Of a stretch of 60,165 bases of DNA, positions 686 to 60,165 are shown piece by piece. The position numbers were made by a program, and so were the translations under genes. This DNA comes from Escherichia phage vB_Eco_SLUR76. Location of the stretch: the sequence record LR025195.1; one strand, written 5' to 3'. The notes below the pieces were generated by a model that saw nothing but the letters and a program-made list of their open reading frames with translations, made no database searches and was not told where the DNA came from. The first letter of the stretch is position 1. The number at the start of each line of letters is the position of its first letter.

Positions 686-1059
686 TCCTCTTGATGATTT
701 AATTTGCGCGCGCTACGTAAGACAGCCTCCTTAGACTTGTTATTGCGGGAGCAGCTACCCGTGTTACCGGACCGCTGCAATAACTCCTCTCTGCCTTAAC
801 GCAGATTATAGCTTGATATACCTTCCGATCACAACAGTTCAATAAATTTCCCTCAAAAGCACTTGACTTCTCATTTTTGATCTGCATCCGTTCAGGTTTA
901 TTAAAATTTATAGAGTTTATATTGTGAAGTATAAACAATCACATAATACCAATAGGTACTATATACAATAATAATAAATCCTTATTTTATATATATTTAT
1001 AGTTATTATTAATATTAGTTTAATTAGGTTTATTTTAGTTAGTTGACTGAAAGTTTATA

Positions 1060-1356
1060 AGTTTATAGGGGTATACACCAAATTTTTTAGAATCATAGTA
1101 TAGGGAGTAGGGTATAGGTATTTGCCATTGTTATACCCTAGTACCCCTATCTTTAGTTTTTCTGCGGGGGCGCAAGGGGTAAACTAAAACTATAAATTTA
1201 GAAAGCTACATAGGGAGGGTATTTTATAGGGTGTTTATAGGGTTACCCTATACGAACCCTGTATTGCACCCTATACCTATTGTTTTACAATAACTCTTGC
1301 AATTTAATAGGGAGGGTCTTACCATAGGGTTAAGGCAATACCCTATCGGAGGCTAT
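1060..1356. repeat. AT-rich non-coding region with at least 12 copies of a TAGGG / CCCTA motif in both orientations (candidate origin or regulatory array)
   Basis: Repeated tataggg, atagggag, tagggt and their complements accctat, ccctatac, seen directly, with no plausible ORF. Confidence 0.6.
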
Positions 1357-2627: not shown

Positions 2628-4970
2628 ATGGAACTGTTTCCCGCTGAAATTAAAGCTTTCCCACAATGGGCGGTCGCCGATGCGGACAAAAAGCCGCTGG
2701 TATGGGATAGCGATATTGGACGTTTGATGGCGGCGGACGTTACCGATCCGGATATGCTTATGACGTTTGAAGCTGCCAAAGGTTGCGCCGCTCATTTCAA
2801 TAAACCTTATATTGGATTCGTGCTTACTGCACAAGACCCGTTCACCTGCATCGACCTGGATGTGAAGAACGCAACCAATGAACCTGATCCCAAGAAACAC
2901 ACGACGCCAGAGCAGTTGCGCCGCTTCGAACAGATCATGACTGCGTTCGATACTTACACCGAAGTAAGTCGCTCAGGCCTGGGTGTCCACCTGTGGTTAA
3001 GAGGTAACATCGGTAAAGGTCGTCGACGTGATGGTGTCGAGGTTTATAGTCAGGAGCGTTTTATTATCTGCACGGGCAATCCTGTCTACAACAAACCAGT
3101 TGCAGAACGTGATCATTACCTTACTATGCTTGTGAATGAAATTGATCTTCAGCGCAAGACATATGAAATTGAACTGGTAGAAAAAGATCCGGTAGAAGAT
3201 GATGCAACTATTCATCAGCGCGCACTTGAAGCAGATAACGGCGATAAGTATGCGCGGTTATTCAATGGTGAATGGGTTGAAATGGGTTTCCCTTCCCAGT
3301 CTGAAGCAGATCTTGCCCTTATTTCTATGTATGCATTCTACACGGAAAGTAATGAGCAATGTCGTCGTCTGTTCCGTTATAGCGCACTGGGCAAACGTGA
3401 GAAGGCTAATAAGAACAATGTTCATATTGACCGTTGCTTGCGCATGTGTCGCGGTCGCATGGAGCGTGAGCGCATTGCCCAGGAAAACGTAGCGGCGCTG
3501 GCGCGGGATTATGCTGCCCGTATGCAAGCGGCACACAGTGCAATGCAGCAGGTAGCGGAAATGCCCGTAACTGTTGAAACAACACAGGGGCAGACAGTAG
3601 TTGCAGAAAGTACATCTATTGATGCAACCGCTATTGACTGGCCGCCGGGACTTGCTGGGGAGCTTGCGAAGTACATCTACAAAGCATCCGTCCGACCAGT
3701 GAAAGAAATTTCTATTGTGACAGCACTAGGATTTATGGCTGGTGTATGCGGGAAGGTTTGGCAGATTCCACAATCGGGTCTTAATGGATATTTCGTCCTT
3801 ATTGCTCGTTCTGGTGTTGGTAAAGAAACGTTGAACAGTGGGCTATCTAATATAGTTAGCCAGCTTCAGGAACCGTTTCCGCAGATTCATAGCTTTGTAT
3901 CCTTTGACCGATGCGCTTCCGGCTCCGCACTGCGTAAATCTTTTGCGGACAAACAATCTTTTATCAACTTGAACGGTGAGTTTGGTAAGATTATTAAAGC
4001 AATGGCTACGGCGCCAGCAGGTTCACCGATGCAAAGCTTCAAGAACGACCTTACCGATGTTTATCAAAAGTCCGGTCAGATGTCTATTGTCGGTGGTATG
4101 TCTTATTCTGATAAGGCTAATAATACGGAAGCTCAACAAGGTGTGGCCTATAGCATCATGGGCGAAACGACACCGGATACGTTCTTTGAAGCATTAACCC
4201 GTGAAATGATGGAGGATGGTTTCTTATCCCGTTTCCATGTTGTCCGCTATGAAGGGGATCGACCGCCTTTAAACAAGAACCAGCAGACTACAATGGATCA
4301 GCATTTGCGGGATATGGTGTGTCATCTTGTTAACCACACCTTAGTCGCAATGGCAAAGCATCAAAGTATTGAAGTGCAGTTTAGCCCGGATGCGGAAGCA
4401 TTATGCGATCAGTTTAACGATGAATGTGACCGTAATATTAACGCAACCAAAGACGAAGCGATCCGTCAGCCGTGGAACCGTGCGCACCTGAAGGTGTTAC
4501 GTCTATCCGCCCTGTTAGCTGTGGGAGAAAACTGGATCAATCCGGTTGTGCAGACCTATCATGTTCAATGGGCCTTGGACTTTGTGCGTCATGGACAGGA
4601 TATCATTATGAAGGAATGGCATAGTGGGGGTATTGGTACTAATGACGAAGCTCGTATCCGTACTATGTGCCAGGTTTGTGTCAATTATCTAACTAAAGAT
4701 TGGGTGAAAGTTAAACGTGTAGATCTGCGTAAGGAAGGAATTATCACGAGGGGTGATATTACTACTCGTCTTGCAAGTAAGTCCGCGTTTAAAAACTATC
4801 ACCACGGATTGTCCGCAGCAATTGAGTCTACGATCAAGGAGATGGTTGCTATGGGTGCTCTTGTTCCGGTAACACGGGAGGAGACTATCAAACTGGGATT
4901 CACTGGCGCAGCTTGGCGCATTACGCAAGATGTTGAAGGTATTATAGCAAACTTAGGAGAAGAGGAATAA
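2628..4970 (+). CDS. Primase-polymerase (archaeo-eukaryotic primase fold) with C-terminal P-loop/helicase-like domain
   Basis: AEP motifs CIDLDV (DxD), SGLGVHLW (SGxGxH), ERFIICTG; later P-loop-like ARSGVGKET; 780 aa. Confidence 0.6.
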   Translation: MELFPAEIKAFPQWAVADADKKPLVWDSDIGRLMAADVTDPDMLMTFEAAKGCAAHFNKPYIGFVLTAQDPFTCIDLDVKNATNEPDPKKHTTPEQLRRFEQIMTAFDTYTEVSRSGLGVHLWLRGNIGKGRRRDGVEVYSQERFIICTGNPVYNKPVAERDHYLTMLVNEIDLQRKTYEIELVEKDPVEDDATIHQRALEADNGDKYARLFNGEWVEMGFPSQSEADLALISMYAFYTESNEQCRRLFRYSALGKREKANKNNVHIDRCLRMCRGRMERERIAQENVAALARDYAARMQAAHSAMQQVAEMPVTVETTQGQTVVAESTSIDATAIDWPPGLAGELAKYIYKASVRPVKEISIVTALGFMAGVCGKVWQIPQSGLNGYFVLIARSGVGKETLNSGLSNIVSQLQEPFPQIHSFVSFDRCASGSALRKSFADKQSFINLNGEFGKIIKAMATAPAGSPMQSFKNDLTDVYQKSGQMSIVGGMSYSDKANNTEAQQGVAYSIMGETTPDTFFEALTREMMEDGFLSRFHVVRYEGDRPPLNKNQQTTMDQHLRDMVCHLVNHTLVAMAKHQSIEVQFSPDAEALCDQFNDECDRNINATKDEAIRQPWNRAHLKVLRLSALLAVGENWINPVVQTYHVQWALDFVRHGQDIIMKEWHSGGIGTNDEARIRTMCQVCVNYLTKDWVKVKRVDLRKEGIITRGDITTRLASKSAFKNYHHGLSAAIESTIKEMVAMGALVPVTREETIKLGFTGAAWRITQDVEGIIANLGEEE

Positions 4971-11262: not shown

Positions 11263-11991
11263 ATGGCCATTGAAATTAAAATGTCTTCACAAGTTGTGCA
11301 GGACACAGGTGTTAAAATTCTGGTTTACGGTGAAGCAGGTATGGGTAAAACCAGCCTTGTAGCCACACTACCTAAACCAATTTTAATCAGCGCAGAATCC
11401 GGTCTGTTGTCTATTGCAGCGGAAAACCTTAACCGTGTTTATGGTAACATGGGTTTGCCCATCGTTTACGATATTCCGGTAATTGAAGTGAAATGTCTGG
11501 AAGACGTTGAAGCGGCTTATCAGTGGTGCGTAACTCCAGCTAACCAGCAGTATTTCGATTCTATTGCGCTTGACAGCTTGAGCGAAATTGCTGAACAATG
11601 TTTAAACAACGCGAAAAAGGGAACGAAAGATCCTCGTCAAGCTTATGGTACTTTGCTTGAAAAGATGCAAGATCTGATCCGTAAATTTCGCGATATTCCT
11701 GGCAAACATGTTTATATGTCTGCTAAAATGGGCAAAGACAAAGATGAAGTCTCCGGTGTTACCGCGTATGCTCCATCTATGCCTGGATCCAAATTGGGGC
11801 AAATGCTCCCTTACTTCTTCGACGAAGTATTTCGTCTGAATGTAAATAAGGATCAGCAAGGTAACTCGTATCGTTACTTGCAAACTCAACCGGACTTTAA
11901 TACAATCGCTAAGGATCGTTCGGGACGTTTAGATGCGGTTGAAGTCCCACACTTAGGTTCTGTTATCAACAAAATGAAAGGTATTAACTAA
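11263..11991 (+). CDS. RecA-like ATPase (Sak4-like recombination ATPase)
   Basis: Walker A GEAGMGKTS; about 240 aa, typical of phage Sak4-type ATPases. Confidence 0.6.
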   Translation: MAIEIKMSSQVVQDTGVKILVYGEAGMGKTSLVATLPKPILISAESGLLSIAAENLNRVYGNMGLPIVYDIPVIEVKCLEDVEAAYQWCVTPANQQYFDSIALDSLSEIAEQCLNNAKKGTKDPRQAYGTLLEKMQDLIRKFRDIPGKHVYMSAKMGKDKDEVSGVTAYAPSMPGSKLGQMLPYFFDEVFRLNVNKDQQGNSYRYLQTQPDFNTIAKDRSGRLDAVEVPHLGSVINKMKGIN

Positions 11992-12878
11992 TGACTATGC
12001 CAACTAATTTCCACTTTGACGCGAGCAGCTATCAAGCACCTTCTTACGGCGCATTGCCGAAAGGTTGGTATAAAGCAGTAATTGAAGCATCTGAATTTAA
12101 ACCGACCAAAAATGGCGGTATGGCGATCCAGGTAACGTTTAGCATCATTGATGGTTTTGCTAAAGGTCGTAAAATCTTTGCTCGTTACAACGTTATCAAC
12201 GACAACGAAGATACTGTGCGTATTGCATACGAACAACTGGGCGCGCTTTCCCATGCGGTTGGCGTAATTCGCTGGGATACTCCTGCTCAACTGCATAACA
12301 TTCCGCTGAACCTGCGTCTGAAAGTTCGTTCTCAGGAAGGTTATGAAGACAGCAACGAGCCTAACGGTTATGCTAACATCAACGATCCGGTTAAGTATGC
12401 AGAAAAAGAAGCAGGTGCTCCAGCAATGGGTGCTCAAGCGGCAGTAGCTAACCCGTTCGGTGCAGGTGCGCCAGCACAGCAGCCAGCTTTCCCGGGCGCA
12501 GCACCTCAGCAACCAGCAGCTAACCCGTTTGCACAGCAACAGCAAGCGCCTGTACAGCAGCAAGCTCCGGTGCAGCAACAGCAGCCAGTTCAGCAGCCTG
12601 TGCAGCAGCAACCAGCACCACAGCAGGGCGCAGCAGCACAACCGTGGCAGAATGCCGCACCGCAGCCGTGGGATAATCCTGCTCAAAACGCAGCACCACA
12701 GCAGCCAGTGCAGCAAGCTCCGGTACAGCAGCCAGTAGCACCGGATGCAGCCCAGCAGCCGTGGGCGCAGCAGGTAGCACAGCCGGGTCAGGCAGCAGCG
12801 CCTCAGCAGCAAGCTCAGCCGCAGCAGCAAGCTGAACCGCATCCAGCACAAGCAGCAGTCCCGCCGTGGCAGCAGTAA
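11991..12878 (+). CDS. Putative ssDNA-binding protein (DUF669-like) with Q/P/A-rich low-complexity C-terminal tail
   Basis: Position next to the Sak4-like ATPase; C-terminal 150 aa are QQQAPVQQ repeats. Confidence 0.45.
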   Translation: MTMPTNFHFDASSYQAPSYGALPKGWYKAVIEASEFKPTKNGGMAIQVTFSIIDGFAKGRKIFARYNVINDNEDTVRIAYEQLGALSHAVGVIRWDTPAQLHNIPLNLRLKVRSQEGYEDSNEPNGYANINDPVKYAEKEAGAPAMGAQAAVANPFGAGAPAQQPAFPGAAPQQPAANPFAQQQQAPVQQQAPVQQQQPVQQPVQQQPAPQQGAAAQPWQNAAPQPWDNPAQNAAPQQPVQQAPVQQPVAPDAAQQPWAQQVAQPGQAAAPQQQAQPQQQAEPHPAQAAVPPWQQ

Positions 12879-15830: not shown

Positions 15831-15845
15831 TTGACTTCAACATCT

Positions 15846-15868
15846 AATGCCCCTACTATTGGGGCATT
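15846..15868 (+). terminator. Rho-independent terminator
   Basis: Hairpin aatgcccc...ggggcatt with a T-rich tail. Confidence 0.55.
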
Positions 15869-15889
15869 ACTTATTTATAGGGGATTGCA

Positions 15890-16511: not shown

Positions 16512-17315
16512 ATGAGTAATATTGAAGATAAGAAAGCCGCTGCTGCCGCAGCCGCTGCTGCCGCTGCAAAATCTGCTAAGACTGCAAAGAAAGAAGCTAC
16601 TGCTAACGACGCAGAAGCTAAAAAAGCCGCTGCCGCTGAAGCTGCACGCGTAGCAAAAGAGAAAAAAGAAGCAGAGAAAAAAGCTGCCGCTGAAAAGAAA
16701 CAAGCTGAAATTCGTATTGAAGCGGAAAATAAATTTACCGCTCTTTCCCAGGCAGTTGAAACCGTGAAGTTTGCTTTATCCGGTATTACCGATGAAAGCA
16801 CTGTTGAACAGATTACGGAAGCAGAATCTAAGGGTTCCGAACAGCTGAAGCATTTAAAGAATGCTCTGAAAGAGCTGAAAGCAGTTGTTAAAAAATCCAA
16901 AGGTGAAGATCTGTCCGGTGCAGTAACTGCTGCTCAGAGCATGGTCGACGAACTGGATTCGTCTATCAAAGGCTTCAAAGACAAGATCCGCGCTGCTAAA
17001 CAGGCTGAAAAGGCTGCTGAAAAAGCCCGCGAAAAAGCTGAACGTGAAAAAGCGAAAGAAGCGAACCGTATGCCTGAACAGAATGGTGTTCGTCGTCCGC
17101 AACCGGAAACTTCCTGCGGTCGTGCCTGGGCTCTGATGGATCAGATTAGCGCTACGCTGGGTCAGCCTGCTCCGATCTCTTATGTTCTGAATCTGGCTGG
17201 TCGCCACGGTCTGAACGAAGATACTGTTAAAACTCAGTATGCGCGTTGGAAGAAGTTTAATGGTGTGACTGGTCGCGTACCTATGCCAGTACCGGAAGCC
17301 CTGAACGGCTTGTAA
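16512..17315 (+). CDS. Lys/Ala/Glu-rich histone-H1-like protein with structured C-terminal domain
   Basis: RBS ggag; the N-terminal 170 aa are low-complexity KAAAEKK repeats. Confidence 0.55.
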   Translation: MSNIEDKKAAAAAAAAAAAKSAKTAKKEATANDAEAKKAAAAEAARVAKEKKEAEKKAAAEKKQAEIRIEAENKFTALSQAVETVKFALSGITDESTVEQITEAESKGSEQLKHLKNALKELKAVVKKSKGEDLSGAVTAAQSMVDELDSSIKGFKDKIRAAKQAEKAAEKAREKAEREKAKEANRMPEQNGVRRPQPETSCGRAWALMDQISATLGQPAPISYVLNLAGRHGLNEDTVKTQYARWKKFNGVTGRVPMPVPEALNGL

Positions 17316-59734: not shown

Positions 59735-60165
59735 ATGTCTAAAGTAACTCACCGCGAACAGGATAAAATGCGCTACACCATGAAAACGAATGCACGCCGT
59801 GCCCTTAAGACCCGTTGGGGTCAGGTTGCACGCGACGCACACGAACAGCTTATCCATCAGGACGAGGTCGGTTTTTACATCGTCGAGAAGGAAGTGCTTC
59901 AGGTGCTGCGCGACCATAAAAAAGCGCAACAGCCGGAGCAGAAAGTACCGGCACCGACCGCCGCGCCAGCTGCCAGCGTCTCGGTACTGCGCCCGATGGT
60001 AAATCCGGAAATCGTCAAAAGCTGCCTCGAAGCTCTGGAGCAGGAGGAAGAGAAAGATATGAAACATGCAAAAGCTGCCACGCAGGTTTCTGAAATCAAA
60101 ATTGAAGAGCCAAAAGCTGCCGCGCCAAAACAGGATGCAAAAGCTGCTCGCTGTGATTTCAAAAA
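59735..60165 (+). CDS. Hypothetical protein, 5' part of the junction-spanning CDS (continues into 1..311)
   Basis: RBS aaaggag then ATG; frame runs through the window end into the repeated start. Confidence 0.55.
   Translation, partial: MSKVTHREQDKMRYTMKTNARRALKTRWGQVARDAHEQLIHQDEVGFYIVEKEVLQVLRDHKKAQQPEQKVPAPTAAPAASVSVLRPMVNPEIVKSCLEALEQEEEKDMKHAKAATQVSEIKIEEPKAAAPKQDAKAARCDFK
60039..60165. repeat. Second copy of the 127-bp terminal overlap
   Basis: Same as 1..127; the reading frame of CDS 59735.. continues into 21..311. Confidence 0.9.

Follow-up and report, generated by a model that had tools for sequence, protein, structure and literature searches.

The window analysed in this work (the whole stretch of DNA, 60,165 bp, LR025195.1) is the complete genome of Escherichia phage vB_Eco_SLUR76, a Seuratvirus of the Queuovirinae. 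In the genome comparisons it is labelled as vB_Eco_SLUR26 (LR025198.1), and window coordinates equal LR025198.1 coordinates minus 2. The element in question sits in a 670-bp gap between an HNH endonuclease gene on the minus strand (350–685) and a plus-strand open reading frame (ORF) of 260 amino acids (aa) (1357–2139). It comprises an AT-rich segment followed by two inverted clusters of the short word ATAGGG(T). The 260-aa ORF is followed on the same strand by ORFs of 67 aa (2201–2404) and 71 aa (2401–2616) and by a gene for a 780-aa primase-polymerase/helicase (2628–4970). With the primase-polymerase/helicase and the small ORFs directly downstream, the element therefore heads the replication gene block. 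By comparing the sites and the adjacent gene across relatives, we consider it likely that the element is a binding array of about 12 ATAGGG(T) sites for the phage's own 260-aa protein.

The word TAGGG, counted together with its complement, occurs 13 times in 1066–1345 and 38 times in the whole 60,165 bp. In the 297 bp from 1060 to 1356, TAGGG had a mean of 0.42 and a maximum of four copies in 20,000 mononucleotide shuffles, and ATAGGG, observed 11 times, had a mean of 0.12 and a maximum of three. A first-order Markov model fitted to this same region gave a mean of 1.13 copies and a maximum of seven, and the densest other 297-bp window of the genome contains three TAGGG copies. These shuffled-sequence statistics confirm the enrichment described in an earlier note, which was made from the letters alone and had reported at least 12 copies of TAGGG(T/A) in both orientations within a non-coding AT-rich region. 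The 13 copies counted here agree with that number, with the correction that the first (1066) belongs to the conserved left segment and lies outside the type-specific array, which has 12 copies of its own spanning 1099–1346. The TAGGG(T/A) form applies to 11 copies, whereas two carry G as the 3′ base. The pooled consensus of the sites is A-T-A-G-G-G-(T>G>A), with the core ATAGGG(T). The region is also free of ORFs, as had been noted: no ORF of at least 30 aa lies wholly within 939–1296, and the annotated gene starts with the ATG at 1357.

The sites share a core of 6–7 bp and are found in both orientations with an irregular spacing of 7–23 bp. Array A (1099–1151) has forward sites at 1101 and 1108 and a degenerate one at 1114, then a spacer of about 17 nt, and reverse sites at 1136 and 1145. 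It is an imperfect palindrome with arms that are 86% complementary, and it folds as a hairpin in single-stranded DNA (ssDNA) with z = −3.2. In the many relatives whose word is ATAGTG(G/A), referred to here as TAGTG-type, the layout of array A is equivalent, with TAGTG/TAGTA, and the dyad symmetry is kept in both types. Array B (1209–1277) has three forward sites, at 1211, 1227, and 1238, directly joined to three reverse ones, at 1246, 1257 (degenerate), and 1269. It includes the perfect palindrome TATAGGGTTACCCTATA at 1236–1252; the 28-nt arms of array B are 71% complementary, and its ssDNA hairpin has z = −2.9 against shuffles. The TAGTG-type phages have 3–4 forward and 3–4 reverse sites in array B, about 40 nt apart. 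Between the two arrays lies a G-run, GCGGGGGCGCAAGGGG (1164–1179, plus strand). A GGGG run is present at the same relative position in every relative of any motif type, often followed by AAAAC, and it is a candidate for a conserved priming or start site. An Rfam search of positions 600–1500 gave no match at E up to 1.

The remaining sites are located at the predicted promoter of the operon that starts with the 260-aa ORF. A weak sigma-70-like promoter, TTGCAA-17-TACCAT (8/12; 1297–1325, plus strand), was predicted from the sequence below the scan thresholds, and a ribosome-binding site, GGAGG (1350–1354, plus strand), precedes the ATG at 1357. Three ATAGGG sites occupy this promoter, namely 1308 (+) in the spacer, 1325 (+) over the −10 hexamer, and 1341 (−) in the leader. 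The same overlap is seen at the stronger promoters of relatives. The TAGTG-type phages have TTGCAA-17-TATAGT (9/12) at the homologous position, and Dru_SM1 and SA126VB have TTGCCA-17-TATAAT (11/12), which overlaps reverse sites; in the SA126VB record, the depositor's own promoter annotation is at that position.

To the left of the array, the gap is occupied by sequence that is common to all motif types. The conserved left flank (805–896) is 84–96% identical in all relatives, whichever word they use. The best sigma-70-like match of the region, TTGTGA-18-TATAAT (10/12; 834–805, minus strand), lies in this flank and is a consensus match only. It points leftward, away from the replication genes, and is kept in relatives that do not have the leftward HNH gene. 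The AT-rich segment (897–1065, about 170 bp) has a GC content of 16%. The 120-bp GC minimum of the whole genome falls within it, at 897–1016 (14.2%, against 25.8% for the runner-up), and the nearly pure A/T stretch that had been noticed at 940–1060 was measured at 16.5% GC. The segment includes a core, CCTTATTTTATATATATT (980–997), and a conserved TTGACT (1044–1049). No base of this core varies among nine aligned loci, some of them from lineages with flanks of only about 67–70% identity, and the core is also kept in an otherwise unrelated module with GGAATAA repeats (see below). We propose that 897–1065 is a DNA-unwinding or helicase-loading region. Moreover, CCTTATTTTATATATATT is too conserved for a mere AT-rich spacer; a conserved factor may bind or be loaded there. 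An IMG/VR search with the AT core retrieved mostly chance AT-rich matches, together with one TAGTG-type and one GGAATAA-type phage. Next to the AT-rich segment lies TAGGGGTATAC (1066–1076, plus strand), which contains the first TAGGG and is part of the conserved left segment. It is unchanged in KurtStettler and L015, both of the TAGTG type, and the divergence between the window phage and KurtStettler starts only at 1089. TAGGGGTATAC may be bound by some conserved factor, or it may be ancestral. It also resembles TAGGGGTA, the array word of the relative L011.

A gap of 600–830 bp was present at the equivalent position in all relatives examined. Its left part, including the AT core, is conserved, and its right part has the same layout with a different word. 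ATAGTG(G/A) occurs in 7–12 copies in KurtStettler, SeppeHuegi, Greed, CSP1, Dru_SM1, SA126VB, KS_S4, L015, L047, and L061–L064. The ATAGGG type of the window phage is shared by Seurat, L012, and L058–L060, and it was assumed for slur01 and CAjan, which are 97% identical to the window phage across 805–1500. The sites are positionally equivalent, as in TATAGGGAGTAGGGTATAGG of the window phage and TATAGTAGTGATAGTGG of KurtStettler, and therefore the two types differ in one core base (position 5, G or T) at practically all sites. The window phage and KurtStettler/KS_S4 are 95–97% identical at 805–1088 and again from 2375 on, whereas the block 1089–2374, which comprises the array, the 260-aa ORF, and most of the 67-aa ORF, is diverged. 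Elsewhere in the genome, the window phage and KS_S4 differ in HNH genes, small ORFs, part of the modification genes, and the tail fibre. In a second, independent pair, the metagenomic L012 (ATAGGG) and L015 (ATAGTG), the sequences before the array and after the ORF agree at 95.6%, and the diverged block consists of the array and the 260-aa ORF alone.

An unrelated module is found at this place in GottfriedDienst (L007 3421–4250) and in L037 (about 1230–2150). There, GGAATAA/TATTCCA clusters flank the same AT core to the left and right, and CAAAAC(T) repeats are present. The module does not contain the 260-aa ORF; a homolog of the 67-aa ORF is kept together with two small ORFs, one of which weakly matches AP2 (Pfam AP2, E 2e-4). 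A hybrid occurs in Dru_SM1 (L009 2860–2960), in which a left GGAATAA cluster is combined with a TAGTG array and the corresponding T-type ORF. For the array module of the window phage, no matches were found in E. coli genomes or plasmids.

The protein most closely tied to the motif type is the 260-aa ORFan (phrog_27223), which the earlier note had not named and which, judged by its co-variation with the array, is the best candidate for the binder. Only its residues 61–130 sort by motif type, with a within-type minimum of 52% and a between-type maximum of 44% identity, and residues 22–60, 131–180, and 181–260 do not. Five positions split the two types perfectly. The motif type matches the type of residues 61–130 in 20 of 20 loci, eight of them added later, although the loci are phylogenetically non-independent. 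Breakpoints are frequent just downstream of residue 130, and none falls between the array and segment 61–130. In Dru_SM1, which is of the ATAGTG type, the C-terminal domain is closest to that of L011. Segment 61–130 includes a basic stretch and helices predicted at 79–96 and 102–118. Residues 22–60 are the most conserved part of the ORF and are common to all types, as expected for a surface in contact with a conserved partner. Because the motif co-varies with the adjacent gene across these loci, an array bound by a phage protein is supported. This bears out one half of the earlier suggestion of either an iteron origin or a multi-site array for a phage DNA-binding regulator, while the origin half is only compatible with the data.

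Other genes were also considered as readers of the motif, and none of them fits as well as the 260-aa ORF. The 67-aa protein (phrog_11967, plus strand) has a MerR/excisionase-like winged-helix model (AlphaFold pLDDT 84), and its best Foldseek matches were BldC, Tn916 Xis, and MerR-family domains (probability 0.90–0.95, E about 0.2). The earlier note had named it as a possible binder, and the winged-helix model agrees with that; it is not sorted by motif type, however, and no position of the recognition helix or wing separates the types. The copy in L012, itself of the ATAGGG type, is 69–75% identical to the copies of ATAGTG phages vs. 52% to that of the window phage. From its model, the 67-aa protein may bind DNA in an accessory role, perhaps at the conserved elements. 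The second binder named earlier, the gene at 16512–17315, lies outside every segment that differs between motif types and is not the best candidate either. The 71-aa ORF (plus strand) is unchanged between motif types and was rejected as the specificity determinant; it is residue-for-residue identical in the TAGTG-type KS_S4, save for the called start, which gives one extra N-terminal Met in the window phage. The primase-polymerase/helicase (plus strand; Pfam PF22763, phrog_3022), which has an NrS-1-like helix-bundle domain, and the terminase were also rejected, on the comparisons given below.

Outside the array, TAGGG occurs 25 times in the window phage vs. 27 times in a TAGTG-using relative. 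Because the TAGTG-type relative is equally poor in the word, the genome-wide scarcity of TAGGG is a compositional trait and not an avoidance of cognate sites, and no type-specific avoidance of the cognate word was found elsewhere in the genome. There was also no sign of a secondary regulon, since the cognate motifs are neither clustered nor type-specific anywhere else in the genome. A pair of TAGGG words at 15851 and 15878 was rejected as a secondary target, being part of a terminator-like hairpin of which a TAGTG-type phage has an identical copy; this structure (15845–15885) consists of the hairpin ATGCCCCTACTATTGGGGCAT followed by TATAGGGG, lies after the helicase gene, and has no relation to the array system. 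The early region of KS_S4 contains a small TAGTG cluster, which was likewise rejected and looks like chance.

We hypothesize that the 260-aa protein would read the sites through segment 61–130 and would assemble on the two inverted clusters, 1099–1151 and 1209–1277. The resulting nucleoprotein complex would lie beside the AT-rich segment 897–1065 with its invariant core, where the conserved primase-helicase (2628–4970) would be loaded and phage DNA replication would start. Furthermore, through the three sites over the weak operon promoter (1297–1346), the 260-aa protein would feed back on its own synthesis. Binding, unwinding of the AT segment, helicase loading, and origin activity are all inferred. 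The origin step is proposed because the AT core persists when the array and its reader are replaced by an unrelated flanking module, because the element heads the replication genes, because residues 22–60 are conserved across types, and because the cumulative GC skew has its minimum at 889, which is a weak point. We put the chance that the binding array is also a replication origin a little below even. For the reading as a whole, in which an iteron-like array read by the 260-aa protein is both the origin and the self-regulating operator of the replication operon, the chances seem evenly balanced.

Several observations weigh against this proposal. The GC-skew analysis that the earlier note had called for did place the cumulative minimum at 889, beside the element, but it is indecisive: KS_S4 has a flat basin of about 3 kb that stretches from the array as far as the divergent early region, and in the window phage the minimum is shifted by the minus-strand HNH gene. 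The skew therefore does not separate an origin from an operator. The sites, at 6–7 bp, are shorter and less regularly spaced than classical iterons. Only a small number of independent events underlie the co-variation (two pairs of recombinants, with two or three states of the motif), and physical linkage contributes to the pattern through the adjacency of array and ORF. No recognisable DNA-binding domain was found in the 260-aa protein by Pfam, PDB sequence, or fold searches, and its model is weak (pLDDT 63.6), with a C-terminal domain of three strands plus a helix that is better modelled. As the fold searches were uninformative, DNA binding by this protein is deduced from the co-variation only. 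Finally, four more distant phages with the same primase family have no comparable arrays within 3.5 kb of the primase, and the array is therefore not a general companion of the primase.

The last observation also fits the main rival, a serious one, in which the element is a purely transcriptional operator: the 260-aa or the 67-aa protein would control the promoter of the replication operon, and replication would start elsewhere or without a fixed origin. The sites overlap the −35, spacer, and −10 positions of the operon promoter in every type, and inverted site pairs are typical of operators. Proteins of the BldC/Xis group bind repeat arrays cooperatively, and the modelled fold of the 67-aa protein is of the MerR/Xis/BldC kind. 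Nevertheless, autoregulation would not call for as many as twelve sites over 250 bp, most of which lie 50–250 bp upstream of the promoter, and no secondary regulon accompanies them in the genome. An operator also leaves unexplained the 170-bp AT segment and its invariant core, which are kept even with an unrelated array and reader module. We therefore regard a pure operator as possible, yet on the unlikely side. In a structural explanation, the repeated word would be a by-product of stems in a cruciform, in ssDNA hairpins, or in a structured leader. Arrays A and B do fold as ssDNA hairpins above shuffles (with the z values given above), and the dyad symmetry of array A is conserved between the types. 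On the other hand, the direct or isolated copies at 1211, 1227, 1308, 1325, and 1341 are needed by no stem, and the arms of array B abut in the window phage and are about 40 nt apart, with different spacings, in the TAGTG types. Together with the lack of an Rfam match and the use of a single word at every copy, which stems do not demand, this makes a structure element highly improbable.

The motifs could also be recognition or priming sites of the primase-polymerase itself, as related enzymes start synthesis at short template words. The NrS-1 PrimPol recognises 5′-GTGG/GTGA-3′ via its helix-bundle domain (PMC8718748). A similar domain is present here, and the ATAGTG(G/A) of many relatives contains GTGG/GTGA. 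However, the primases of the window phage (ATAGGG) and KS_S4 (ATAGTG) differ at 2 of 780 residues, and the primase region of L012 and L015 is 95.6% identical, so that one enzyme would need two words, and the ATAGGG sites mostly have no GTG. Priming sites are for this reason very unlikely. Packaging (pac/cos) or partition sites, read by the small terminase or a centromere-binding protein, would account for the appearance of the array, because short repeats in both orientations likewise make up pac sites and plasmid centromeres. The terminase genes terS and terL, however, are located about 10 kb away on the circular map, at about 49.4–51.5 kb, and their identity between motif types is at least 90%. 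The annotation includes no ParA/ParB-like gene, the phage has a lytic lifestyle, and neither plasmids nor E. coli genomes carry the module; either function is extremely unlikely. The earlier note had remarked that the motif resembles the 3′ end of T7-type promoters, and TATAGGGAG (1099–1107) indeed matches the start-site part of the T7 promoter consensus. The copies share only 6–7 bases among themselves, though, against the roughly 23 bp conserved in such promoters, and they are in both orientations at 7–23 bp spacing and confined to one locus. The note's statement that no phage RNA polymerase is encoded is also correct: every ORF of at least 500 aa has another assignment, and no unassigned ORF of RNA-polymerase size is left. 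The probability of phage RNA polymerase promoters is thus practically negligible.

DNA modification may be a further variable in the binding proposed for the 260-aa protein. For CAjan, a close relative, dPreQ0 is reported to take the place of guanine in GA and GGC (PMC10484667). The ATAGGGA sites, and ATAGTGGC/ATAGTGA of other phages, contain dPreQ0 contexts, whereas ATAGGGT does not. It may be that binding at the sites differs between virion DNA and newly made DNA.

The surroundings of the locus are variable. The HNH endonuclease gene at 350–685 is an insertion, and several relatives do not have it. HNH genes are inserted at varying points around the module: to the left of the array in the window phage and Dru_SM1, and a second time between the 67-aa ORF and the primase in L011 (5064–5597) and Dru_SM1 (L009 4534–5058), while Seurat and KurtStettler have none of these genes. 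Such variable insertions suggest active homing around the locus. The genes are oriented on the plus strand from about 59.2 kb across the record start to 27.6 kb, and the remainder are on the minus strand. The record start splits a gene, in that the ORF at 21–311 encodes the C-terminal 96 aa of a phrog_22313 protein of about 204 aa and the N-terminal part is at the window end (about 59736–60165); the linear record is therefore an assembly opened at an arbitrary point. A dense CAGCA/GCAGC repeat, with up to 22 copies per 297 bp, occurs at 12300–12700 inside the gene 11991–12878, in the sole 1-kb bin with 53% GC, and is probably a low-complexity coding repeat rich in Gln, Ala, and Ser.

The family of the 260-aa protein is narrow, with 23 phage records and four 90% clusters in 5.8 billion proteins. 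An exhaustive profile search retrieved two real cluster representatives, the third match being a spurious eukaryotic repeat protein, and an IMG/VR search with the protein found slur01 only. A profile comparison with two other repeat-containing proteins of the phage was negative. No match to the Rep, RepA, or O families was obtained by Pfam, NCBI-source names, PDB, or fold.

The arrangement of the locus resembles several known systems in part. The iteron replicons with a self-regulated initiator (pPS10, F, P1) and the lambda ori with its O protein likewise combine an AT segment, clustered sites, a promoter with overlapping inverted sites, a reader gene, and helicase functions. In lambdoid phages, moreover, the site sequence and a protein segment change together between close relatives while the other replication machinery is constant. 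The iterons of those replicons, however, are 17–22 bp long, mostly direct, and regular, unlike the sites of 6–7 bp in both orientations at irregular intervals of 7–23 bp described here. Moreover, the lambda array is inside the gene and not upstream of it, and the 260-aa protein, whose origin role is proposed from sequence comparisons, matches none of the Rep, RepA, and O families. The satellite phage P4 has at ori/crr a short word (8 bp), direct and inverted, in two clusters, and a primase-helicase of roughly 780 aa. The P4 word is read by the alpha primase-helicase itself, through its C-terminal domain, whereas here a separate 260-aa protein co-varies with the sites and the primase is unchanged; the P4 clusters are also kilobases apart, as against about 60 bp here.

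The core origins of polyomaviruses and papillomaviruses (GAGGC with large T antigen; E1/E2) have words of 5–6 bases head-to-head beside an AT tract. In papillomaviruses, a separate specificity protein (E2) recruits the helicase (E1), and a separate specificity protein may do likewise here. The proteins and hosts are unrelated, and the resemblance is one of layout only. The heptad arrays of pSM19035 omega and the BldC and Xis-type systems have sites of about 7 bp in mixed orientation, over and upstream of promoters, and the neighbouring 67-aa protein has a BldC/Xis-like model. Here, however, that protein is not sorted by type, the sites are non-contiguous, and the invariant AT core has no counterpart in those systems. 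The locus thus belongs to none of the compared families, as the repeats are too short and irregular, the reader is not the primase, and there is no Rep or O match. No description of the element, nor of Seuratvirus replication control, was found in the searchable literature.

Seuratviruses and related phages of E. coli are common, and they are used in phage collections and in work on deazaguanine DNA modification. They offer two natural versions of the array that differ by one base per site and by one 70-residue protein segment in a near-identical background. With these, a protein–DNA recognition code is directly testable in a protein without a known DNA-binding domain, and so is the question of the origin. 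More tentatively, and as less likely than not, we suggest that the 260-aa ORFan is a new sequence-specific origin-binding initiator, and that its reading segment and the array are exchanged as a cassette among near-identical Seuratviruses, giving replicon-specificity types (ATAGGG, ATAGTG, TAGGGGTA, and GGAATAA/AP2) around one AT core and primase-helicase. If this is true, a function would be assigned to an ORFan family, and lytic phages would be seen to exchange origin specificity by cassette, in the manner of lambdoid phages. The specificity types could then decide whether co-infecting relatives use or compete for each other's origins.

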